Source: Giardia intestinalis (Eukaryota). Taken from it: a DNA stretch of 64,000 nt. Positions 1-23,452 of the stretch are shown here, piece by piece. The stretch lies in assembly GCA_000002435.2 (NCBI GenBank), contig CM018793.1; one strand, given 5' to 3'. The position numbers were made by a program, and so were the translations under genes. Below the pieces are notes generated by a model. The model made no database searches, was not told where the DNA came from, and saw nothing but the letters and a program-made list of their open reading frames with translations. Numbering within the stretch: the stretch's first letter is position 1; every line of letters starts with the position of its first letter.

Positions 1-3000
1 CATACCATCATTGCGCACAAGATCTGCTTCCTTGTCGATCAATAGCTTCACTGCACGCATATTTCCCTGCTGTGCTGCAAACATAAGGGCTGACCAACCG
101 TCCCTGTTCTGTTTTCCGCTTTGAATTAGGTAGGCTTTGATGTCGGCCTCATTTCCAAGTGCTACCGCTTGCATTAACCGTGTATTGCCGTACCAGTCGA
201 CCAGGTCTGTCAGAATAACTTGTTGACCAATCGTATTAGGAATGGAGGTGCGAGGACTGGAGACAGGGGTAATTACATCGGGAAGATATCCAACAGAGCC
301 CATAATTCCCTGCAATCGCTCTTCTTGTTCGTTATAGGCTTGTGATTTGGCTAAATATGCTTTTTTATATCGCTTTACCTCACCCCGCAAGTCTTCGACT
401 TCTTGCACTAAAGCATCAGATAGACTTACATCTGAACCTAGGTGGTGAAGGTCAGTCAAGGTCAAGCCATTGCTAGGTAAAACAGGATTAGTCTTATCTG
501 GTTCAGCAAATTGTTTGGCCTTTAGCTCAGCTATAGCGGACGATAAAGCAGAATTTTCAGCCTGAAGCCTCAAACGCGCATCCTCTGACTCACGTAACTG
601 TATGGCTTTTCGAAGGTATCCTGATTTGTACTTAAATACTCTGTCCTTTAACTCTTTTTCCGATAACGGGTTGATGTTCGACCTAGCATAATCAGCTTTT
701 GTAAGACGCAATAGAGCATTATCTTTGCGAAGATCCTCTAGTTCTCGTTGCAGTTCGGCAAGTGTGGGCTCGTGAGCCCTATCATGCAGGGATGACGAAT
801 GTGTAGCAAGGAATAAGTCATCGACAGGTTTAGATTCATCGGAGACCTTCTGTGCCAGGACGTCCCCGGTGGGCTGGGAGAGCAGGGCCTCCTGGAGGCG
901 CTTGATCTCGCGGTCCTTCTCGGCCAGGAGCGCGTCGTAGTCGGTGGTGGTCTGGGCCAGGCGCGGGCTCGCGGCTCCGCTAGCGACGGCGTCCTCGAGG
1001 CGCTTGCTGAGGCCTTCGTTCTCCTTGACCTTTTCTGCCAGTCGGCCAAGGGCGCTTTGGATTGCAGCCCGGTCTGCCTGCTCGTTGGCGCGCAGCTGCT
1101 GCCGGAGATCGTCCAGCGCCTGCTGGTGCCGGGCTTCGTCGGCTGCGCGAGCCTCTTCCGCGGCCCGGAGAAGGGCAGGATAGTCAATGGCGGGCTCGGC
1201 GGCTGCGGCCTGGAGGCGGGCAAGCTCTTCGTCACGGGCTTGGAGGGCCTCTTCAAGGGCCTGGATTCGGGCTGCTGCCCCGGGCTCTTCGGATTCGAGA
1301 GATCTCGGGTCCTGGGCGGCGAGCCTCTCCTGAAGCCTGGAGATCTCGGCGTTCTTCCGTTCGGCATCTGTCCTTGCTTCCGCAGCGGCATCTTCTAGAG
1401 CCCGGATGCGAGCCGTAAGTCCATCAATGGTAACTGGCAATTCGCCCTCGGCGCTTGCAGATTCCACACCCTGGACGATATTGCCCATGAGTTGTGTAAC
1501 CAGGCTGCCGTTGTCCTGAACCTTGTCGGCGAGCTGGTTGATAGCTGTTTGCAGACCATCTGCAGGAGACCGCGTTGCAGAAAGTGCGTCTCTGAGTTGG
1601 GCAATCTCGTCGTCCTTCTGTGCCAGGACGTCCCCGGTGGGCTGGGAGAGCAGGGCCTCCTGGAGGCGCTTGATCTCGCGGTCCTTCTCGGCCAGGAGCG
1701 CGTCGTAGTCGGTGGTGGTCTGGGCCAGGCGCGGGCTCGCGGCTCCGCTAGCGACGGCGTCCTCGAGGCGCTTGCTGAGGCCTTCGTTCTCCTTGACCTT
1801 TTCTGCCAGTCGGCCAAGGGCGCTTTGGATTGCAGCCCGGTCTGCCTGCTCGTTGGCGCGCAGCTGCTGCCGGAGATCGTCCAGCGCCTGCTGGTGCCGG
1901 GCTTCGTCGGCTGCGCGAGCCTCTTCCGCGGCCCGGAGAAGGGCAGGATAGTCAATGGCGGGCTCGGCGGCTGCGGCCTGGAGGCGGGCAAGCTCTTCGT
2001 CACGGGCTTGGAGGGCCTCTTCAAGGGCCTGGATTCGGGCTGCTGCCCCGGGCTCTTCGGATTCGAGAGATCTCGGGTCCTGGGCGGCGAGCCTCTCCTG
2101 AAGCCTGGAGATCTCGGCGTTCTTCCGTTCGGCATCTGTCCTTGCTTCCGCAGCGGCATCTTCTAGAGCCCGGATGCGAGCCGTAAGTCCATCAATGGTA
2201 ACTGGCAATTCGCCCTCGGCGCTTGCAGATTCCACACCCTGGACGATATTGCCCATGAGTTGTGTAACCAGGCTGCCGTTGTCCTGAACCTTGTCGGCGA
2301 GCTGGTTGATAGCTGTTTGCAGACCATCTGCAGGAGACCGCGTTGCAGAAAGTGCGTCTCTGAGTTGGGCAATCTCGTCGTCCTTCTGTGCCAGGACGTC
2401 CCCGGTGGGCTGGGAGAGCAGGGCCTCCTGGAGGCGCTTGATCTCGCGGTCCTTCTCGGCCAGGAGCGCGTCGTAGTCGGTGGTGGTCTGGGCCAGGCGC
2501 GGGCTCGCGGCTCCGCTAGCGACGGCGTCCTCGAGGCGCTTGCTGAGGCCTTCGTTCTCCTTGACCTTTTCTGCCAGTCGGCCAAGGGCGCTTTGGATTG
2601 CAGCCCGGTCTGCCTGCTCGTTGGCGCGCAGCTGCTGCCGGAGATCGTCCAGCGCCTGCTGGTGCCGGGCTTCGTCGGCTGCGCGAGCCTCTTCCGCGGC
2701 CCGGAGAAGGGCAGGATAGTCAATGGCGGGCTCGGCGGCTGCGGCCTGGAGGCGGGCAAGCTCTTCGTCACGGGCTTGGAGGGCCTCTTCAAGGGCCTGG
2801 ATTCGGGCTGCTGCCCCGGGCTCTTCGGATTCGAGAGATCTCGGGTCCTGGGCGGCGAGCCTCTCCTGAAGCCTGGAGATCTCGGCGTTCTTCCGTTCGG
2901 CATCTGTCCTTGCTTCCGCAGCGGCATCTTCTAGAGCCCGGATGCGAGCCGTAAGTCCATCAATGGTAACTGGCAATTCGCCCTCGGCGCTTGCAGATTC

Positions 3001-6000
3001 CACACCCTGGACGATATTGCCCATGAGTTGTGTAACCAGGCTGCCGTTGTCCTGAACCTTGTCGGCGAGCTGGTTGATAGCTGTTTGCAGACCATCTGCA
3101 GGAGACCGCGTTGCAGAAAGTGCGTCTCTGAGTTGGGCAATCTCGTCGTCCTTCTGTGCCAGGACGTCCCCGGTGGGCTGGGAGAGCAGGGCCTCCTGGA
3201 GGCGCTTGATCTCGCGGTCCTTCTCGGCCAGGAGCGCGTCGTAGTCGGTGGTGGTCTGGGCCAGGCGCGGGCTCGCGGCTCCGCTAGCGACGGCGTCCTC
3301 GAGGCGCTTGCTGAGGCCTTCGTTCTCCTTGACCTTTTCTGCCAGTCGGCCAAGGGCGCTTTGGATTGCAGCCCGGTCTGCCTGCTCGTTGGCGCGCAGC
3401 TGCTGCCGGAGATCGTCCAGCGCCTGCTGGTGCCGGGCTTCGTCGGCTGCGCGAGCCTCTTCCGCGGCCCGGAGAAGGGCAGGATAGTCAATGGCGGGCT
3501 CGGCGGCTGCGGCCTGGAGGCGGGCAAGCTCTTCGTCACGGGCTTGGAGGGCCTCTTCAAGGGCCTGGATTCGGGCTGCTGCCCCGGGCTCTTCGGATTC
3601 GAGAGATCTCGGGTCCTGGGCGGCGAGCCTCTCCTGAAGCCTGGAGATCTCGGCGTTCTTCCGTTCGGCATCTGTCCTTGCTTCCGCAGCGGCATCTTCT
3701 AGAGCCCGGATGCGAGCCGTAAGTCCATCAATGGTAACTGGCAATTCGCCCTCGGCGCTTGCAGATTCCACACCCTGGACGATATTGCCCATGAGTTGTG
3801 TAACCAGGCTGCCGTTGTCCTGAACCTTGTCGGCGAGCTGGTTGATAGCTGTTTGCAGACCATCTGCAGGAGACCGCGTTGCAGAAAGTGCGTCTCTGAG
3901 TTGGGCAATCTCGTCGTCCTTCTGTGCCAGGACGTCCCCGGTGGGCTGGGAGAGCAGGGCCTCCTGGAGGCGCTTGATCTCGCGGTCCTTCTCGGCCAGG
4001 AGCGCGTCGTAGTCGGTGGTGGTCTGGGCCAGGCGCGGGCTCGCGGCTCCGCTAGCGACGGCGTCCTCGAGGCGCTTGCTGAGGCCTTCGTTCTCCTTGA
4101 CCTTTTCTGCCAGTCGGCCAAGGGCGCTTTGGATTGCAGCCCGGTCTGCCTGCTCGTTGGCGCGCAGCTGCTGCCGGAGATCGTCCAGCGCCTGCTGGTG
4201 CCGGGCTTCGTCGGCTGCGCGAGCCTCTTCCGCGGCCCGGAGAAGGGCAGGATAGTCAATGGCGGGCTCGGCGGCTGCGGCCTGGAGGCGGGCAAGCTCT
4301 TCGTCACGGGCTTGGAGGGCCTCTTCAAGGGCCTGGATTCGGGCTGCTGCCCCGGGCTCTTCGGATTCGAGAGATCTCGGGTCCTGGGCGGCGAGCCTCT
4401 CCTGAAGCCTGGAGATCTCGGCGTTCTTCCGTTCGGCATCTGTCCTTGCTTCCGCAGCGGCATCTTCTAGAGCCCGGATGCGAGCCGTAAGTCCATCAAT
4501 GGTAACTGGCAATTCGCCCTCGGCGCTTGCAGATTCCACACCCTGGACGATATTGCCCATGAGTTGTGTAACCAGGCTGCCGTTGTCCTGAACCTTGTCG
4601 GCGAGCTGGTTGATAGCTGTTTGCAGACCATCTGCAGGAGACCGCGTTGCAGAAAGTGCGTCTCTGAGTTGGGCAATCTCGTCGTCCTTCTGTGCCAGGA
4701 CGTCCCCGGTGGGCTGGGAGAGCAGGGCCTCCTGGAGGCGCTTGATCTCGCGGTCCTTCTCGGCCAGGAGCGCGTCGTAGTCGGTGGTGGTCTGGGCCAG
4801 GCGCGGGCTCGCGGCTCCGCTAGCGACGGCGTCCTCGAGGCGCTTGCTGAGGCCTTCGTTCTCCTTGACCTTTTCTGCCAGTCGGCCAAGGGCGCTTTGG
4901 ATTGCAGCCCGGTCTGCCTGCTCGTTGGCGCGCAGCTGCTGCCGGAGATCGTCCAGCGCCTGCTGGTGCCGGGCTTCGTCGGCTGCGCGAGCCTCTTCCG
5001 CGGCCCGGAGAAGGGCAGGATAGTCAATGGCGGGCTCGGCGGCTGCGGCCTGGAGGCGGGCAAGCTCTTCGTCACGGGCTTGGAGGGCCTCTTCAAGGGC
5101 CTGGATTCGGGCTGCTGCCCCGGGCTCTTCGGATTCGAGAGATCTCGGGTCCTGGGCGGCGAGCCTCTCCTGAAGCCTGGAGATCTCGGCGTTCTTCCGT
5201 TCGGCATCTGTCCTTGCTTCCGCAGCGGCATCTTCTAGAGCCCGGATGCGAGCCGTAAGTCCATCAATGGTAACTGGCAATTCGCCCTCGGCGCTTGCAG
5301 ATTCCACACCCTGGACGATATTGCCCATGAGTTGTGTAACCAGGCTGCCGTTGTCCTGAACCTTGTCGGCGAGCTGGTTGATAGCTGTTTGCAGACCATC
5401 TGCAGGAGACCGCGTTGCAGAAAGTGCGTCTCTGAGTTGGGCAATCTCGTCGTCCTTCTGTGCCAGGACGTCCCCGGTGGGCTGGGAGAGCAGGGCCTCC
5501 TGGAGGCGCTTGATCTCGCGGTCCTTCTCGGCCAGGAGCGCGTCGTAGTCGGTGGTGGTCTGGGCCAGGCGCGGGCTCGCGGCTCCGCTAGCGACGGCGT
5601 CCTCGAGGCGCTTGCTGAGGCCTTCGTTCTCCTTGACCTTTTCTGCCAGTCGGCCAAGGGCGCTTTGGATTGCAGCCCGGTCTGCCTGCTCGTTGGCGCG
5701 CAGCTGCTGCCGGAGATCGTCCAGCGCCTGCTGGTGCCGGGCTTCGTCGGCTGCGCGAGCCTCTTCCGCGGCCCGGAGAAGGGCAGGATAGTCAATGGCG
5801 GGCTCGGCGGCTGCGGCCTGGAGGCGGGCAAGCTCTTCGTCACGGGCTTGGAGGGCCTCTTCAAGGGCCTGGATTCGGGCTGCTGCCCCGGGCTCTTCGG
5901 ATTCGAGAGATCTCGGGTCCTGGGCGGCGAGCCTCTCCTGAAGCCTGGAGATCTCGGCGTTCTTCCGTTCGGCATCTGTCCTTGCTTCCGCAGCGGCATC

Positions 6001-9000
6001 TTCTAGAGCCCGGATGCGAGCCGTAAGTCCATCAATGGTAACTGGCAATTCGCCCTCGGCGCTTGCAGATTCCACACCCTGGACGATATTGCCCATGAGT
6101 TGTGTAACCAGGCTGCCGTTGTCCTGAACCTTGTCGGCGAGCTGGTTGATAGCTGTTTGCAGACCATCTGCAGGAGACCGCGTTGCAGAAAGTGCGTCTC
6201 TGAGTTGGGCAATCTCGTCGTCCTTCTGTGCCAGGACGTCCCCGGTGGGCTGGGAGAGCAGGGCCTCCTGGAGGCGCTTGATCTCGCGGTCCTTCTCGGC
6301 CAGGAGCGCGTCGTAGTCGGTGGTGGTCTGGGCCAGGCGCGGGCTCGCGGCTCCGCTAGCGACGGCGTCCTCGAGGCGCTTGCTGAGGCCTTCGTTCTCC
6401 TTGACCTTTTCTGCCAGTCGGCCAAGGGCGCTTTGGATTGCAGCCCGGTCTGCCTGCTCGTTGGCGCGCAGCTGCTGCCGGAGATCGTCCAGCGCCTGCT
6501 GGTGCCGGGCTTCGTCGGCTGCGCGAGCCTCTTCCGCGGCCCGGAGAAGGGCAGGATAGTCAATGGCGGGCTCGGCGGCTGCGGCCTGGAGGCGGGCAAG
6601 CTCTTCGTCACGGGCTTGGAGGGCCTCTTCAAGGGCCTGGATTCGGGCTGCTGCCCCGGGCTCTTCGGATTCGAGAGATCTCGGGTCCTGGGCGGCGAGC
6701 CTCTCCTGAAGCCTGGAGATCTCGGCGTTCTTCCGTTCGGCATCTGTCCTTGCTTCCGCAGCGGCATCTTCTAGAGCCCGGATGCGAGCCGTAAGTCCAT
6801 CAATGGTAACTGGCAATTCGCCCTCGGCGCTTGCAGATTCCACACCCTGGACGATATTGCCCATGAGTTGTGTAACCAGGCTGCCGTTGTCCTGAACCTT
6901 GTCGGCGAGCTGGTTGATAGCTGTTTGCAGACCATCTGCAGGAGACCGCGTTGCAGAAAGTGCGTCTCTGAGTTGGGCAATCTCGTCGTCCTTCTGTGCC
7001 AGGACGTCCCCGGTGGGCTGGGAGAGCAGGGCCTCCTGGAGGCGCTTGATCTCGCGGTCCTTCTCGGCCAGGAGCGCGTCGTAGTCGGTGGTGGTCTGGG
7101 CCAGGCGCGGGCTCGCGGCTCCGCTAGCGACGGCGTCCTCGAGGCGCTTGCTGAGGCCTTCGTTCTCCTTGACCTTTTCTGCCAGTCGGCCAAGGGCGCT
7201 TTGGATTGCAGCCCGGTCTGCCTGCTCGTTGGCGCGCAGCTGCTGCCGGAGATCGTCCAGCGCCTGCTGGTGCCGGGCTTCGTCGGCTGCGCGAGCCTCT
7301 TCCGCGGCCCGGAGAAGGGCAGGATAGTCAATGGCGGGCTCGGCGGCTGCGGCCTGGAGGCGGGCAAGCTCTTCGTCACGGGCTTGGAGGGCCTCTTCAA
7401 GGGCCTGGATTCGGGCTGCTGCCCCGGGCTCTTCGGATTCGAGAGATCTCGGGTCCTGGGCGGCGAGCCTCTCCTGAAGCCTGGAGATCTCGGCGTTCTT
7501 CCGTTCGGCATCTGTCCTTGCTTCCGCAGCGGCATCTTCTAGAGCCCGGATGCGAGCCGTAAGTCCATCAATGGTAACTGGCAATTCGCCCTCGGCGCTT
7601 GCAGATTCCACACCCTGGACGATATTGCCCATGAGTTGTGTAACCAGGCTGCCGTTGTCCTGAACCTTGTCGGCGAGCTGGTTGATAGCTGTTTGCAGAC
7701 CATCTGCAGGAGACCGCGTTGCAGAAAGTGCGTCTCTGAGTTGGGCAATCTCGTCGTCCTTCTGTGCCAGGACGTCCCCGGTGGGCTGGGAGAGCAGGGC
7801 CTCCTGGAGGCGCTTGATCTCGCGGTCCTTCTCGGCCAGGAGCGCGTCGTAGTCGGTGGTGGTCTGGGCCAGGCGCGGGCTCGCGGCTCCGCTAGCGACG
7901 GCGTCCTCGAGGCGCTTGCTGAGGCCTTCGTTCTCCTTGACCTTTTCTGCCAGTCGGCCAAGGGCGCTTTGGATTGCAGCCCGGTCTGCCTGCTCGTTGG
8001 CGCGCAGCTGCTGCCGGAGATCGTCCAGCGCCTGCTGGTGCCGGGCTTCGTCGGCTGCGCGAGCCTCTTCCGCGGCCCGGAGAAGGGCAGGATAGTCAAT
8101 GGCGGGCTCGGCGGCTGCGGCCTGGAGGCGGGCAAGCTCTTCGTCACGGGCTTGGAGGGCCTCTTCAAGGGCCTGGATTCGGGCTGCTGCCCCGGGCTCT
8201 TCGGATTCGAGAGATCTCGGGTCCTGGGCGGCGAGCCTCTCCTGAAGCCTGGAGATCTCATCGTCCTTTCGCGCTAATACGTCACTGATGGGTTGAGAGA
8301 GAAGCAAATCATTCAAGTTCATTTTGGAGGATTGAATATCATATGCAGGAGTAGGAGCCATTCCCAACATAACTTCATCTAGTAAGTTGTGGTTTGGCGT
8401 ATAAGGAATTGAGGAGGATATATTGATACACAGGTTTCTCAACCGATCGATTTCTTTATCGCGCTCTTTGAGAAGCTTATGAAATTGGGCCCTTATTTCA
8501 TTGACATCATCTGAAGAAAAGTCAGTATCAGGCATAGAAAGAGGAGCTAGAGACACACCGTATGTTGAGATAAGAAGCTCCCTAAAGCAGTTCATTCCAT
8601 CCCTAATATCGATTGGATACTCGGTATTCTTAAAAGAGTGGTAATCGGCGAACGTCTGATAAATGTTCAACAGGTCGTCACGCAAATCTTCTTTATGATC
8701 ACCAGAAGTAAGTGCTGTATCGACTTTATCAGAATAATCCATCAGCAGTTTTCGACAAACCAGCGGGGCAAGAGTAGGCTGCACACATGTCCCATACACC
8801 GGTACGGATGTTCGACTAAGAAATTGCAATTCAACCTCATCCTGGTTTGTGAGGGTGAAGTCTGTTATGCGCTTTGTTCCACATCTATTTGTCGATGTCA
8901 CGAACTGCTCAAGTATCTGCTTAGCATATGCAAGGTATTCTCTGATATCAGTGTCGGCATTGGAAGCTGCATCACCTAATAAGCGTTGACAGCAGAAGAT

Positions 9001-9828
9001 AGCCCATGTATAATTTTCTTCTACGAGATTCTGCGCTCTGTAACGCGTACAGGCAAGAGAGGCTATATTGATGTAGAGCAAATCTGATCGTATGTCGGCA
9101 AGATCAAGAATAGATTCGCTTATAGCGAAAAGGCCTTTACAAACAAGACTATCTGGCTGCGAACGATGTACAGCAACCTTTTTATAAAGCTTCGAAGCCT
9201 GCTGCCTGTACCTGGTCACCGAGTCATGTTCTTCGGTTAATTCTGGGCTAGTTGAGATAAGGTCCATGGCGAGTGCCCTGCTAAAGTGTTCTAGAGCCTG
9301 TAATACGTCACGGTTTAAGAGGGTTCCATCTAAAGTGGAAAACGTGCTATCGACTTGCTGCAATGTTTCAGAAATCATGTTTGCCGCTTGCAAAATATAT
9401 CCTACTGAATGGTGAATAGCTTTGGCATTGGAGGCAGCGAGTGTGTAACACGCAGACACGGTGTTATATAACAGTGCTACAATATCCAGTAAAACACTAT
9501 TTGCAATTATGGTGAGTGAAGATCCAGTGGACCATATCAGCATGGCCTGTTCAGAGGGCGCTTTAATTTCGGGGCTCTCCCAGGGAAGCATGAACAAGAG
9601 ATCCTTGGCAAGAAGATAGCATTCATAGACAGTATCCATATGAATAGACATGTCAAAGCTGGCTAATATCTTCCGCTTTTCCTTCAACCTTCTAATTACA
9701 TTAGAGATGAGTTCCACAGCCCCTGAAGGGAATATTTGGACCGTAGCTTCTAGCACTGAATAAAAGGACCCATCGTCCTGGGGTTCTAATGGGGGAAGAG
9801 AAGGAATGACGGGCGGTGGCGCGTTCAT
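1..9828 (-). CDS. Giant coiled-coil protein, 3' partial (C-terminus beyond window start). It has a unique ~520-aa N-terminal head (9828->8260), then 9.65 identical 256-aa Ala/Glu/Leu/Arg-rich coiled-coil repeats, then a unique coiled coil (845->~250), then an ankyrin repeat ('GWSALMFAAQQGNMRAVKLLIDKEADLVRNDGM') at 1-130.
   Basis: My translation of the minus strand from ATG 9828..9826 (plus 'cat') found no stop through the head, the whole repeat array and the 3' unique part to position 1. The ORF track lists no long ORF here only because the stop lies off-window. An A/T-rich initiator 'aaaaatttaaaaaattcggagattgATG' precedes the start. The repeat frame reads '...LAQKDDEIAQLRDALSATRSP...DREIKRLQEALLSQPTGDV...'. 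Confidence 0.8.
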   Translation of the reverse strand, partial: MNAPPPVIPSLPPLEPQDDGSFYSVLEATVQIFPSGAVELISNVIRRLKEKRKILASFDMSIHMDTVYECYLLAKDLLFMLPWESPEIKAPSEQAMLIWSTGSSLTIIANSVLLDIVALLYNTVSACYTLAASNAKAIHHSVGYILQAANMISETLQQVDSTFSTLDGTLLNRDVLQALEHFSRALAMDLISTSPELTEEHDSVTRYRQQASKLYKKVAVHRSQPDSLVCKGLFAISESILDLADIRSDLLYINIASLACTRYRAQNLVEENYTWAIFCCQRLLGDAASNADTDIREYLAYAKQILEQFVTSTNRCGTKRITDFTLTNQDEVELQFLSRTSVPVYGTCVQPTLAPLVCRKLLMDYSDKVDTALTSGDHKEDLRDDLLNIYQTFADYHSFKNTEYPIDIRDGMNCFRELLISTYGVSLAPLSMPDTDFSSDDVNEIRAQFHKLLKERDKEIDRLRNLCINISSSIPYTPNHNLLDEVMLGMAPTPAYDIQSSKMNLNDLLLSQPISDVLARKDDEISRLQERLAAQDPRSLESEEPGAAARIQALEEALQARDEELARLQAAAAEPAIDYPALLRAAEEARAADEARHQQALDDLRQQLRANEQADRAAIQSALGRLAEKVKENEGLSKRLEDAVASGAASPRLAQTTTDYDALLAEKDREIKRLQEALLSQPTGDVLAQKDDEIAQLRDALSATRSPADGLQTAINQLADKVQDNGSLVTQLMGNIVQGVESASAEGELPVTIDGLTARIRALEDAAAEARTDAERKNAEISRLQERLAAQDPRSLESEEPGAAARIQALEEALQARDEELARLQAAAAEPAIDYPALLRAAEEARAADEARHQQALDDLRQQLRANEQADRAAIQSALGRLAEKVKENEGLSKRLEDAVASGAASPRLAQTTTDYDALLAEKDREIKRLQEALLSQPTGDVLAQKDDEIAQLRDALSATRSPADGLQTAINQLADKVQDNGSLVTQLMGNIVQGVESASAEGELPVTIDGLTARIRALEDAAAEARTDAERKNAEISRLQERLAAQDPRSLESEEPGAAARIQALEEALQARDEELARLQAAAAEPAIDYPALLRAAEEARAADEARHQQALDDLRQQLRANEQADRAAIQSALGRLAEKVKENEGLSKRLEDAVASGAASPRLAQTTTDYDALLAEKDREIKRLQEALLSQPTGDVLAQKDDEIAQLRDALSATRSPADGLQTAINQLADKVQDNGSLVTQLMGNIVQGVESASAEGELPVTIDGLTARIRALEDAAAEARTDAERKNAEISRLQERLAAQDPRSLESEEPGAAARIQALEEALQARDEELARLQAAAAEPAIDYPALLRAAEEARAADEARHQQALDDLRQQLRANEQADRAAIQSALGRLAEKVKENEGLSKRLEDAVASGAASPRLAQTTTDYDALLAEKDREIKRLQEALLSQPTGDVLAQKDDEIAQLRDALSATRSPADGLQTAINQLADKVQDNGSLVTQLMGNIVQGVESASAEGELPVTIDGLTARIRALEDAAAEARTDAERKNAEISRLQERLAAQDPRSLESEEPGAAARIQALEEALQARDEELARLQAAAAEPAIDYPALLRAAEEARAADEARHQQALDDLRQQLRANEQADRAAIQSALGRLAEKVKENEGLSKRLEDAVASGAASPRLAQTTTDYDALLAEKDREIKRLQEALLSQPTGDVLAQKDDEIAQLRDALSATRSPADGLQTAINQLADKVQDNGSLVTQLMGNIVQGVESASAEGELPVTIDGLTARIRALEDAAAEARTDAERKNAEISRLQERLAAQDPRSLESEEPGAAARIQALEEALQARDEELARLQAAAAEPAIDYPALLRAAEEARAADEARHQQALDDLRQQLRANEQADRAAIQSALGRLAEKVKENEGLSKRLEDAVASGAASPRLAQTTTDYDALLAEKDREIKRLQEALLSQPTGDVLAQKDDEIAQLRDALSATRSPADGLQTAINQLADKVQDNGSLVTQLMGNIVQGVESASAEGELPVTIDGLTARIRALEDAAAEARTDAERKNAEISRLQERLAAQDPRSLESEEPGAAARIQALEEALQARDEELARLQAAAAEPAIDYPALLRAAEEARAADEARHQQALDDLRQQLRANEQADRAAIQSALGRLAEKVKENEGLSKRLEDAVASGAASPRLAQTTTDYDALLAEKDREIKRLQEALLSQPTGDVLAQKDDEIAQLRDALSATRSPADGLQTAINQLADKVQDNGSLVTQLMGNIVQGVESASAEGELPVTIDGLTARIRALEDAAAEARTDAERKNAEISRLQERLAAQDPRSLESEEPGAAARIQALEEALQARDEELARLQAAAAEPAIDYPALLRAAEEARAADEARHQQALDDLRQQLRANEQADRAAIQSALGRLAEKVKENEGLSKRLEDAVASGAASPRLAQTTTDYDALLAEKDREIKRLQEALLSQPTGDVLAQKDDEIAQLRDALSATRSPADGLQTAINQLADKVQDNGSLVTQLMGNIVQGVESASAEGELPVTIDGLTARIRALEDAAAEARTDAERKNAEISRLQERLAAQDPRSLESEEPGAAARIQALEEALQARDEELARLQAAAAEPAIDYPALLRAAEEARAADEARHQQALDDLRQQLRANEQADRAAIQSALGRLAEKVKENEGLSKRLEDAVASGAASPRLAQTTTDYDALLAEKDREIKRLQEALLSQPTGDVLAQKDDEIAQLRDALSATRSPADGLQTAINQLADKVQDNGSLVTQLMGNIVQGVESASAEGELPVTIDGLTARIRALEDAAAEARTDAERKNAEISRLQERLAAQDPRSLESEEPGAAARIQALEEALQARDEELARLQAAAAEPAIDYPALLRAAEEARAADEARHQQALDDLRQQLRANEQADRAAIQSALGRLAEKVKENEGLSKRLEDAVASGAASPRLAQTTTDYDALLAEKDREIKRLQEALLSQPTGDVLAQKVSDESKPVDDLFLATHSSSLHDRAHEPTLAELQRELEDLRKDNALLRLTKADYARSNINPLSEKELKDRVFKYKSGYLRKAIQLRESEDARLRLQAENSALSSAIAELKAKQFAEPDKTNPVLPSNGLTLTDLHHLGSDVSLSDALVQEVEDLRGEVKRYKKAYLAKSQAYNEQEERLQGIMGSVGYLPDVITPVSSPRTSIPNTIGQQVILTDLVDWYGNTRLMQAVALGNEADIKAYLIQSGKQNRDGWSALMFAAQQGNMRAVKLLIDKEADLVRNDGM
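846..8259 (-). repeat. Intragenic tandem array with a 768-bp unit and 9.65 copies at 100% identity (copy boundaries e.g. 847/1615/2383/.../7759). The unit encodes a 256-aa coiled-coil repeat and is about 65% GC against about 45% GC flanks.
   Basis: Exact 768-nt periodicity is visible directly. The ORF track shows identical spurious peptides at offsets of exactly 768. Identity breaks at 845/846 (a vs t) and at 8260 (a vs g). Degenerate older copies of the motif flank the array, e.g. the head-side 'ISDVLARKDDEISRLQERLAAQDPRS'. Confidence 0.95.
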
Positions 9829-20536: not shown

Positions 20537-20674
20537 GGCAATAGAAATTCATGCATGGACTAAGGTTGCGGCGGCTTGGTGCAAGCTATTCCAGGGTTCG
20601 GGCGGTTAAGCACACATGGTCAAAAAAACAGGGCATTTTTGGCGCCGGCGCCTTTAAAGGGAATTCAAAAAAGG

Positions 20675-23452
20675 ATGAACTCGATCGGTGACAAGAAGTC
20701 GTGGTTTGACTGCATCACAAAGCGTCAGTACACAACGATCCGCACAGGGCTGCGCCTCTATGGAGGAGCAAGCAACGCAGTTGGAGAAACAGGTCTGATG
20801 AATGCCGCGCGCACAAACGACTGTGAACTTGCGAAGATCCTCTGCATCCAGGAAGCCGGGATCAAGAATAAAGACGGTCATACCGCGCTGATACTTGCAG
20901 CGTGCTATGATCACCACGAGATCTGCGATGTCATCGCTCCCTTCGAGAAGAAGTATGCGACTAATGAGGGAAAAAATGCCCTTATGTTTGCTGCGGAGTA
21001 CGGTTGCACCGAGTCTGTAAAGGTTCTCTGCGGGTATTTCGACCTGAAGGAGCGTGACAATGACGGGCTGAGCGCCCTCGACTACGCTATGAACAACACT
21101 CACCCGGCATGTGTGGAAGCCATCATGGAAGCCGGGAAGCTTACCGAAGAGGCTGCAAACAAGCAAATCGCCCAGTCCATTCGTAACTCGTTCTCTTCTC
21201 TCGAAGAGTTCTACAGGTTAGCGACTGAATACGCCGAGCTTCCTGATACTCGGTGCAAGTGCTGTGACCTCCCGTACAATCTTTGCTCAAATAAGGACAA
21301 CGTTGTCAACATAGTGCGCAAGTACCCTCCCTTTTTTGCTCAGAACCCTACGTCTGCGTCCGCCACTGTCACGACCAAGGTTGGTCAGGCACATGGGATT
21401 TCGCCCCTTGACCCCAACCAAGAGGAGCTACTGAATCAGCTCGGTCCTGTCCTGAAGGAGGCCCAGCTCAGAGCCTGGTATAGCGATATTTGCGAAGAAA
21501 TTTCGCGCTTACGTGAGGATCACGCGAAGATCACCATTGAGAACCGTGAACTGACCGATAACCTTGGCACGGAGACGGCGACCCACGACGCCCTGAAGCT
21601 GAAGTTCGATAAGCTTAAGCTTGACAACGACGAGACAACCCTCAAGTACGAGGATCTTATTTCTCGTCATAACGCTCTGATGCACGAGTGCAAGACGCTA
21701 CAAGAGGATGCCGAGAAGGCAAGGGAGCAGAGAGTTGCTGTGGAGGTCTTGCACCAGAAGATCTCGAACATGCTTTCCAGTACGGATGACGATATCAGTA
21801 AGACAATAGAGAATATGCTAAAGACTCATAACACAGAAATGCAGAAGCGCACAGAGGAGCTTGAGCTTATGAAGCATTCGGTAGATATCATGGCTGCAGA
21901 GCACGCAGTTGTCAAGAAGGAGATGGACAAGCTTACGGAGAGCAAGGTTCAGGCCGAGGCACAGGTCTCCATCATCCAGAATAAACTCCTGGCCAAGGAG
22001 GAAGAGAATCGCCACATGACTAACAGACTCGAGGCGACCACTGCCATGATCAACGAGCTCGAGGCAAAGAACAACGAGCTCGAGATAGAGACGTCCAAGC
22101 TTATGGACGAGGTGACGAAGTCCAGGCTGATGACGCAGCAGCTTATCGGGAAGATGAACGAGAAGGAGAAGCTCTTGGAGGACACACGCGATGAACTGGC
22201 ACACACGCTGGGTGAGCGCGAGGCGCTCTATCATCGCATCAACCTTATCACAGATGATAAGGAAGCTGCAGAGGCGCGGATCCAGCGCAAGGATGAGAGC
22301 ATAAGCCTTCTCCACGACGACAAGCGCAACCTGGAAGGTCAGGTGCTTTTCCTTACCGAGGAGCTAACAAAGTCGCAAATAGCAGCGAAGAACATGTCAT
22401 CCAAGATGCGCCTGGAGAATCCACTGGGTGGAAGTGGCGGGAACGGGCCTAAGCAACTCTACCCTGTCGACATCAACAAGGACGCCGGGTCTCCAAACAG
22501 CAATAGCAACGCCGTCGATGCGTTCATCAATAACATGAATAACATATCAACGGGGCCAAACAGCATGGCAGGGAGCCCTCAGCGCAAAGAGTCACAAATC
22601 AACGCCATCATCAGGAACATGATGCACCCCACGAATCAAGATCTCCACCAAGCAATACTCGATTCAGATAAGCCGGAGATAGCCAGCAACATCACGAACG
22701 CTATGATGTCCGCTAACGCACTTGCAAATTTTGACGTGACCGAGCGCACTGACTCGGTCAACAACAGTGCAGCACGATCGAGCAGTAACTCATCACGTTT
22801 CCTTAATTTACAGTTGATGTCCGGGTCTATGAGAATCAAGACCAGCCTCCACAACCGCGACAACAACATTGCCGTCACCGGTCAAGACAAGCGCAACAAC
22901 AGATTGACTGAGCTTATGGAGGCGGCCAGGGACAACGACTTTGTAAAGGCGTACCACCGCATTGACGTCCAGGGAGGCCTGCAGGATGACCATGGATATA
23001 CTGCTCTTATGTATGCTGCCAGTGAAGGAAACCTTGAGATGTGCCGCCTTCTTGTCGAGAAGGAGGCTGGAATGTGCAGCCACGATGGAACGACGGCTTT
23101 AATGAGGGCTGTGTCTGGAGGGCATGCAGATGTTACCGCCTTTCTCCTTGACAAGGAGGCTGGCATGCAGAGAAACGACGGGTGGACTGCGCTTATGGCT
23201 GCTGCATGCGATAATAGACCAGACATTGTCACGATTCTTGCGCACAACGAGTCTGCAATCGTTACTAACGAAAACTTTCCGGCAGGAGGAGGCGTGTCTG
23301 CGCTGATGCTTGCTGCGACAGGAGGGCACCAGGAGTGTGTCCAGCTTCTTCTCCCATATGAGGCTGCTCTGCAGCACTCGAGCGGACGCACCGCTGCAGA
23401 CTATGCTAACAGTGAAGATCTACGCGACATCATTTTGGAGTATACCGTTTGA
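20675..23452 (+). CDS. Ankyrin-repeat + coiled-coil protein (21.1 type) of ~925 aa. It has N-terminal ankyrin repeats, a ~450-aa coiled coil, an Asn/Ser-rich low-complexity stretch and C-terminal ankyrin repeats.
   Basis: ORF track 20576 starts at TTG. I re-anchored on ATG 20675 (MNSIGDKKSWFDCITKRQ), preceded by 'gaattcaaaaaaggATG'. Ankyrin motifs include 'GHTALILAACYDHHEI', 'GKNALMFAAEYGCTESV', 'GYTALMYAASEGNLEMCRLLV' and 'GWTALMAAACDNRPDIV'. AGTAAAT lies 14 nt after the stop. Confidence 0.8.
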   Translation: MNSIGDKKSWFDCITKRQYTTIRTGLRLYGGASNAVGETGLMNAARTNDCELAKILCIQEAGIKNKDGHTALILAACYDHHEICDVIAPFEKKYATNEGKNALMFAAEYGCTESVKVLCGYFDLKERDNDGLSALDYAMNNTHPACVEAIMEAGKLTEEAANKQIAQSIRNSFSSLEEFYRLATEYAELPDTRCKCCDLPYNLCSNKDNVVNIVRKYPPFFAQNPTSASATVTTKVGQAHGISPLDPNQEELLNQLGPVLKEAQLRAWYSDICEEISRLREDHAKITIENRELTDNLGTETATHDALKLKFDKLKLDNDETTLKYEDLISRHNALMHECKTLQEDAEKAREQRVAVEVLHQKISNMLSSTDDDISKTIENMLKTHNTEMQKRTEELELMKHSVDIMAAEHAVVKKEMDKLTESKVQAEAQVSIIQNKLLAKEEENRHMTNRLEATTAMINELEAKNNELEIETSKLMDEVTKSRLMTQQLIGKMNEKEKLLEDTRDELAHTLGEREALYHRINLITDDKEAAEARIQRKDESISLLHDDKRNLEGQVLFLTEELTKSQIAAKNMSSKMRLENPLGGSGGNGPKQLYPVDINKDAGSPNSNSNAVDAFINNMNNISTGPNSMAGSPQRKESQINAIIRNMMHPTNQDLHQAILDSDKPEIASNITNAMMSANALANFDVTERTDSVNNSAARSSSNSSRFLNLQLMSGSMRIKTSLHNRDNNIAVTGQDKRNNRLTELMEAARDNDFVKAYHRIDVQGGLQDDHGYTALMYAASEGNLEMCRLLVEKEAGMCSHDGTTALMRAVSGGHADVTAFLLDKEAGMQRNDGWTALMAAACDNRPDIVTILAHNESAIVTNENFPAGGGVSALMLAATGGHQECVQLLLPYEAALQHSSGRTAADYANSEDLRDIILEYTV

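Follow-up and report, generated by a model that had tools for sequence, protein, structure and literature searches.

The question raised by this locus is why the middle of a single gene should differ so sharply in base composition from its two ends. In a 64,000-nt stretch of the Giardia intestinalis WB genome (the window, along which all coordinates are counted), a minus-strand open frame begins with an ATG at 9828-9826 and continues without a stop codon for 3276 codons to position 1, running on past the start of the window. A non-repeated head, a tandem array of a 768-bp unit and a non-repeated tail belong to this one continuous frame (Table 1), and the array forms a GC-rich compositional island. 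Judged from its relatives in other Giardia lineages, the island is a genuine and vertically inherited feature of the central repeat domain, and the best reading of it, although a tentative one, is a fixation bias toward preferred codons that is maintained in a homogenized array.

The array has a GC content of 64.9% (GC1, GC2 and GC3, the values at the three codon positions, are 0.78, 0.46 and 0.70), compared with 43.5% (GC3 0.43) in the head, 45.0% (GC3 0.40) in the tail and 46.9% (GC3 0.48) in the 27 other open reading frames (ORFs) of the window. In 300-nt sliding windows the GC fraction jumps from 0.40-0.48 to reach 0.57-0.70 over the stretch from about 8250 to 850, and each 768-nt segment of the array lies 7.7 standard deviations over the mean of the remaining 54 kb, where the maximum is 0.536. 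Maximum-likelihood change points were placed at 8252 (support 8233-8276) and 839 (support 834-863), and the corresponding repeat edges are at 8259 and 846. An earlier reading of the letters alone (the original prediction) had claimed an island of about 65% GC limited to the repeat array and sharply bounded at its edges; both parts are borne out by these measurements, and the GC and GC3 profiles are non-uniform along the gene, so the observation stands. It requires one correction, since the island is uneven and contains an internal trough in each unit that had gone unnoticed. The first 501 bp of the unit (P1) have 68.9% GC and a GC3 of 0.78, while the remaining 267 bp (P2) have 56.6% GC and a GC3 of 0.53, near background, with nearly all of the P2 excess at codon position 1. 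Within the unit, GC3 drops from 1.0 to 0.3 inside about 20 codons, and a run of 40 consecutive G/C-ending codons stops just short of the junction with P2 or the tail. The observed/expected ratio of CpG differs only slightly between P1 (0.88) and the flanks (0.80-0.82).

If the unit protein were encoded with the ordinary codon usage of the window, its expected GC content would be 55.3%, compared with 64.6% observed and a background of 46.9%: about half of the GC excess is amino-acid composition, and the other half is synonymous codon choice. The unit is rich in Ala, Glu, Arg, Gln, Leu and Asp (Ala 21%, Glu 11%, Arg 9% and Gln 8%), and Gly, Ala, Arg and Pro together make up 37% of its residues against 23% in the background. 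The codon-choice half is restricted to P1, the excess in P2 being nearly all compositional. At the fourfold degenerate sites of P1, C reaches 0.57, G is 0.20, and A and T are both 0.11, while the background values for C and G are 0.23 and 0.19; the ratio C/(C+G) departs from that of the background (binomial p 0.0006). For Giardia, 26 optimal codons that are preferred in highly expressed genes have been reported (PMC8393687), and the codons enriched in P1 (GCC, CTC, GAC, ATC, ACC, AGC, CGC, CAG and AAG) are all among them, C-ending codons being preferred except for Gln and Lys, where G-ending codons are. The frequency of optimal codons (Fop) is 0.76 in P1, 0.47 in P2, 0.365 in the head, 0.336 in the tail and 0.42 in the background ORFs, the head and tail values being the lowest in the window. 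Scored against the tables of the same study, P1 codons gain 0.55 bits per codon for the high-expression over the low-expression table. A GC3 near 0.8 is nevertheless unexceptional in itself, as Giardia genes cover a GC3s range of 26-99% (PMC8393687). The GC3 codon preference suggested by the original prediction thus holds as a description, with an Fop of 0.76 in P1 vs 0.34-0.37 in the head and tail and a lower synonymous divergence (see below), but it fails as the sole cause: the codon-usage comparison finds P1 shifted to optimal codons, and the amino-acid half of the excess had been overlooked.

The final 19 codons of the head offer a comparison within the gene. They are homologous to unit residues 151-169 (68% identity, z 7.4), and among the 12 identical residues six have A/T-ending codons in the head and G/C-ending codons in the unit, with one in the reverse state. 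This motif copy can be read, from its similarity to the unit, as a small natural control for the codon shift outside the array.

All nine full units and the 502-bp partial unit are 100% identical, at every base, giving an array of about 2470 residues (2471 aa), and a 59-mer quoted in the original prediction occurs ten times at a spacing of 768 bp. Tandem Repeats Finder reported no array because its longest period, 500, is below 768, and the array was defined by a repeat search and a script. Copy identity and copy number rest on one long-read assembly, a type of data in which polishing can homogenize copies. In short-read assemblies of WB-type read sets, of which there are more than 20, a 61.5-kb contig stops 30 nt into the array, leaving a gene product of 533 aa (523 + 10); since the contigs break at the array start, which is how a repeat branch point behaves, the repetition is independently confirmed. 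On three Logan contigs (L010-L012), where this is the last gene, the break 30 nt into the array provides a simple branch-point marker for isolates. There is also a weak similarity inside the unit, between residues 79-127 in P1 and 168-219 at the start of P2 (z 3.6, p about 0.005; DDLRQQLR...AIQSALGRLAEKVKENEGL and DDEIAQLR...QTAINQLADKVQDNGSL, window 7492-8259, minus strand), which suggests an older sub-duplication within the unit whose halves are now unlike in GC3.

Table 1. Parts of the giant open frame and of its tandem array, in window coordinates
Feature	Coordinates	Strand	Basis or remark
Head: N-terminal 523 codons, non-repeated	8260-9828	-	open frame, translation, composition
Tandem array: 9.65 x 768-bp (256-codon) unit	846-8259	-	period, identity, composition
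Tail: non-repeated coiled-coil and first ankyrin repeats	1-845	-	Ank_2 match, E 2e-9
P1 of first unit (unit nt 1-501)	7759-8259	-	recurs every 768 bp
P2 of first unit (unit nt 502-768)	7492-7758	-	recurs every 768 bp, nine copies
Last P1 copy, 502 identical bases	846-1347	-	partial final unit
Run of 40 consecutive G/C-ending codons (unit codons 125-164)	7768-7887	-	two-state GC3 segmentation, circular unit
Final 19 codons of head (LNDLLLSQPISDVLARKDD)	8260-8316	-	homologous to unit residues 151-169 (LQEALLSQPTGDVLAQKDD)

Word-indexed protein searches gave one match each, and an exhaustive HMMER search gave four relatives. The ortholog in P15 (assemblage E), GLP15_4739 (locus L001, 8325-11327), is a protein of 1000 aa made up of head, P1 and tail, that is, with 0.65 of a unit and no P2, and with both junctions the same as in WB; it runs for 28 residues beyond the point matching the WB window edge before its stop. 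Its identity to WB is 91% in the head and 98% in P1, and its P1 has 67.7% GC and a GC3 of 0.74, where the head on one side has 42.2% GC and the tail on the other 44.3%. Two accounts of the short array can be given: the units collapsed when older, shorter reads were assembled, or the array really contracted. As P2 is present in WB and in a further contig described next, yet missing from the P15 assembly, GLP15_4739 is likely too short; it is probably a collapsed repeat, with the deposited protein likely about 2300 aa short.

The best word-indexed match to the unit was WP_164875159.1, a 255-aa 'hypothetical protein, partial' labelled Streptomyces sp. SS, on contig AKXV01000073.1 (L009; assembly GCA_000302615.1). 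The contig is 767 bp long and consists of one unit, circularly permuted and with no indels. Its identity to WB is 82% and its GC content 66.9%, with a GC3 of 0.75 overall, 0.81 in P1 and 0.62 in P2. The GC3 of Streptomyces is above 0.9. Because the contig is a whole rotated unit without indels and its GC3 is unlike that of Streptomyces, it almost certainly represents a collapsed repeat of another Giardia lineage contaminating a Streptomyces assembly. The presence of P2 in both WB and L009 means that the full unit predates the split from the L009 lineage.

A more distant ortholog was found in G. muris, where it is annotated as 'Ankyrin repeat protein 3' (TNJ27745.1, 3881 aa, HMMER E 3e-49; locus L007, 10001-21646). 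The heads of the two proteins share 29-37% identity depending on the alignment. At the same position as in WB there is an array (L007, 11693-19430) of 11.36 identical 681-bp units, 7738 bp long vs 7414 bp in WB, and the two units are about 27% identical (pairwise E 9e-9). The G. muris array has 59.9% GC against 53.7% in its flanks, about 6 points, with the excess at GC1 only (0.78). Its GC3 of 0.595 lies between those of the head (0.63) and tail (0.54), and fourfold sites show no C enrichment. The high GC1 that this array shares with that of WB shows the compositional layer to be old. A 668-bp metagenome contig (L008; ENA ERZ27277194 k141_155295), which may be chimeric, encodes at 82-504 a sequence related to unit residues 150-256 at 50% identity; its core has 70.7% GC, a GC3 of 0.91 and fourfold C and G of 0.46 and 0.42, and its flanks have 42-51% GC.

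Comparison of these lineages shows how P1 has changed. Its GC3 is 0.74-0.81 in the three G. intestinalis lineages (WB, P15 and L009), which are 5-18% diverged: the WB unit differs from P15 at 27 of 501 sites and from L009 at 18% of sites. Changes between the window and L009 are roughly balanced (72 AT-to-GC vs 55 GC-to-AT). Fourfold divergence between WB and P15 is 0.108 in P1 vs 0.277 in the head and 0.304 in the tail (Fisher p 0.0003), so that these sites diverge 2.7 times slower in P1 than in the flanks, and P2 evolves faster than P1. The copies are homogenized, being identical within WB and within G. muris, yet they differ between lineages. When P1 changes were polarized by parsimony, using L009 as the single outgroup and with small counts, WB had seven GC-to-AT and four AT-to-GC changes and P15 had 11 and one, or 18 vs five for both lineages pooled; WB and P15 do not differ significantly in direction (Fisher p 0.15). 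The retained GC3, the balanced changes and the slow silent change together argue for a maintained fixation bias, and not for a recent event or passive decay.

Two layers can be distinguished. The amino-acid composition of the helical repeat raises the GC content, a layer that is ancient and common to G. muris, and on top of it the synonymous sites of P1 are driven to C-ending codons and held at or near equilibrium, for which a fixation bias is the proposed cause. This bias on synonymous sites would most likely be a weak selection that favors preferred codons or disfavors A/T-rich motifs. It would be effective inside the array only, where each site is present in about 10 copies that are homogenized by unequal exchange and conversion; repetition would multiply the selective effect about tenfold, and the sequence just beyond the array would relax toward the A/T-rich baseline around it. 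With selection multiplied in this way only inside the array, the edges of the island would be the edges of the repeat. A maintained bias of this kind fits with which codons are enriched, with how slowly the silent sites change and with how sharp the outer edges are.

Several observations weigh against it. P2, with an equal copy number in the same array, has an Fop of 0.47 and a GC3 of 0.53, so no array-wide force is sufficient and the favored model leaves the GC3 of P2 unexplained. The codon bias is confined within the ORF and is not a property of the whole transcript, Fop being low in the head, tail and P2. Being the lowest in the window, the head and tail values point to weak expression of the gene, under which translational selection should be negligible, and translational selection on the whole gene is contradicted by the very low Fop of both parts. 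Optimal codons are not enriched at conserved residues in an accuracy test (Fop 0.65 vs 0.71 at variable ones, p 0.49), the codon-level shift is missing from the G. muris array, and P1 is more C-biased than the high-expression set (p 0.02), mainly in GCC vs GCG. Finally, the P15 assembly keeps its high GC with 0.65 of a unit, although this assembly may be collapsed. Taken further, the array might be seen as a natural experiment in which tenfold repetition and homogenization amplify an otherwise ineffective silent-site force, so that one ORF would hold two equilibria of codon usage, divided by base-pair-sharp borders, in a protist that is polyploid and has little or no sex. In a sharper version P1 would contain a recombination-initiating element that homogenizes the array and sets its own composition, and the position of both array junctions at P1 edges would then be accounted for. 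This extension is doubtful, and it is offered as a conjecture.

A serious rival is a conversion bias limited to a hotspot. In GC-biased gene conversion (gBGC), put forward by the original prediction, continual conversion and unequal exchange among the units and the four genome copies would form heteroduplex DNA far oftener than the single-copy flanks do and would be accompanied by mismatch repair biased to G:C, and to fit this locus the hotspot would have to be limited to P1. GC enrichment by biased gene conversion has precedents in rDNA and histone arrays. Perfect homogenization within species combined with divergence between lineages is what gBGC would give, as are island boundaries exactly at the repeat edges, the reduced synonymous divergence of P1 and the A/T-rich head-end motif outside the array, and the polarized changes lean more strongly to A/T in P15, with its 0.65 copy, than in the WB array, although that contrast is the non-significant one given above. 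Strand-symmetric repair should, however, raise both C and G, and the fourfold gain is in C only, G being flat (0.20 vs 0.19). P2 would be converted equally often and still has a GC3 of 0.53, the drop within about 20 codons is too sharp for conversion tracts, and the G. muris array, which is equally perfect, has no GC3 excess. In its simple form gBGC is disfavored by the C-only shift, the background GC3 of P2 and the G. muris array, and even with a hotspot it is rather unlikely. A literature search found two papers in which Giardia and gBGC both occur, though not in the title or abstract of either. The other extreme is that composition and history suffice: a helix rich in Ala, Arg, Glu and Gln, with a P1 codon pattern that was inherited and is slowly decaying under no present force. 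This accounts for about half of the WB excess, all of the G. muris excess and nearly all of the P2 excess, and it is in keeping with the lean of polarized P1 changes toward A/T in both lineages and with a GC3 that lies inside the reported Giardia range (PMC8393687). What makes it improbable is that the GC3 of P1 has stayed at its level across three lineages, that the WB-L009 change counts are nearly balanced, and that silent sites in P1 change more slowly than the flanks, which neutral decay does not predict; nor does G. muris provide a high-GC3 ancestral state for P1.

Two further explanations can be given very little weight. A foreign or ectopic origin, in which the unit came from a GC-rich bacterium or another Giardia locus and kept the composition of its donor, was also among the suggestions of the original prediction. 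It would account for the sharp boundaries, and the best database match to the unit does carry a Streptomyces label, but that contig is a contaminating Giardia-type unit. A scan of one genome per bacterial or archaeal species gave no prokaryotic relatives, a scan of JGI metagenome contigs gave none either, and the exhaustive HMMER search gave Giardia-type relatives only and no paralogous donor locus. In addition, a homologous array stands at the same place in the G. muris ortholog, and motifs of P1 are shared by the head end and by P2. A separate origin for the module is therefore unsupported and, given the homologous G. muris array, the donor absent from the searches and the contaminant nature of the bacterial match, effectively refuted. 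Equally improbable is a hidden second function, by which the GC-richness would be imposed by a gene overlapping in a different frame or on the opposite strand, or by a G-quadruplex or other structural element. Alternative-frame ORFs do nearly span the unit, one on the minus strand taking up 254 of its 256 codons and one on the plus strand 224, but permutation of synonymous codons gives the observed stop counts as expected (p 0.26 for the 254-codon frame), the lowest nominal p, 0.025 in the +2 frame, being uncorrected for five frames. The alternative-frame product is low-complexity Pro/Arg/Ser sequence, and no G-quadruplex motifs were found on either strand. The 254-aa and 224-aa ORFs in each unit were accordingly rejected as genes, being alternative frames of GC-rich sequence with lengths that the permutation leads one to expect.

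The remainder of the window carries intron-free eukaryotic genes, including those for signal recognition particle (SRP) receptor alpha, a PI3/PI4-kinase and many ankyrin proteins, and two of the encoded proteins, a phospholipase B (KAE8305179.1 / XP_001709220.1) and a glycerophosphocholine phosphodiesterase, have identical counterparts among the WB entries. Neither the window nor the P15 and G. muris flanks that were analyzed contain a further long tandem array that could act as a control. An ankyrin-repeat ORF on the plus strand (20576-23452) has a GC3 of 0.63 and an Fop of 0.60, compared with about 0.47 and 0.41 for its neighbors, and is an instance of ordinary between-gene GC3 variation in the same region. 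At the protein level, the repeat is modeled as almost entirely helical (pLDDT 58, low confidence). The head gave a BRO1 match below threshold (E 0.0012, 18.2 bits vs a Pfam cut-off of 35.1), with 14.2 bits in P15 and no match in the G. muris head; a BRO1-domain assignment was rejected, since the score is under the gathering threshold in WB and P15 and there is none in G. muris. No solved-structure relative of the head was found, and its AlphaFold model is unusable (pLDDT 44).

A literature search found no description of the island in this gene. It is a new example of known phenomena, amino-acid composition and codon preference, and not a new kind of element. Its interest lies in the within-gene contrast, where parts of the same transcript differ in copy number, which could be used to separate codon selection from conversion bias in Giardia. 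Two database problems are also brought to light, namely a Giardia repeat annotated as a Streptomyces protein and the probably collapsed P15 ortholog.

When set beside known systems, the array has partial counterparts. Like the rDNA and histone arrays subject to gBGC, that of WB has identical tandem copies that are GC-richer than their surroundings; its shift differs in involving C only, in covering two thirds of the unit and in being absent from the array of the sister species. Compared with the expression-linked codon bias of Giardia (PMC8393687), P1 uses the same optimal codons and its Fop of 0.76 is within the high-expression range, but that bias is a property of whole genes, whereas in WB it switches on and off within one ORF. 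A further counterpart is the G. muris ankyrin repeat protein 3, which has the same head, a helical array of identical units with the same GC1 of 0.78, a coiled coil and ankyrin repeats, and which differs in its 681-bp unit and in having no GC3 excess in the array. The array length is near constant between the two species (9.65 x 256 = 2471 aa in WB vs 11.36 x 227 = 2579 aa in G. muris) despite the unlike units, a hint that selection may act on how long a helical spacer is, and the conservation of such a giant repeat protein in both G. muris and G. intestinalis suggests a structural role in setting length. A similar design is described for Trypanosoma brucei p197: in the passages of PMC9546609 that deal with this protein, which mention no compositional island (composition itself was not searched for), about 26 near-identical helical repeats of 175 aa lie between terminal binding domains, serve as a spacer whose length sets a cellular distance, and collapse in assemblies. 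As far as those passages go, and in architecture only, the two proteins may be likened to one another, both being giant and both carrying long, near-identical helical repeats between distinct terminal domains.

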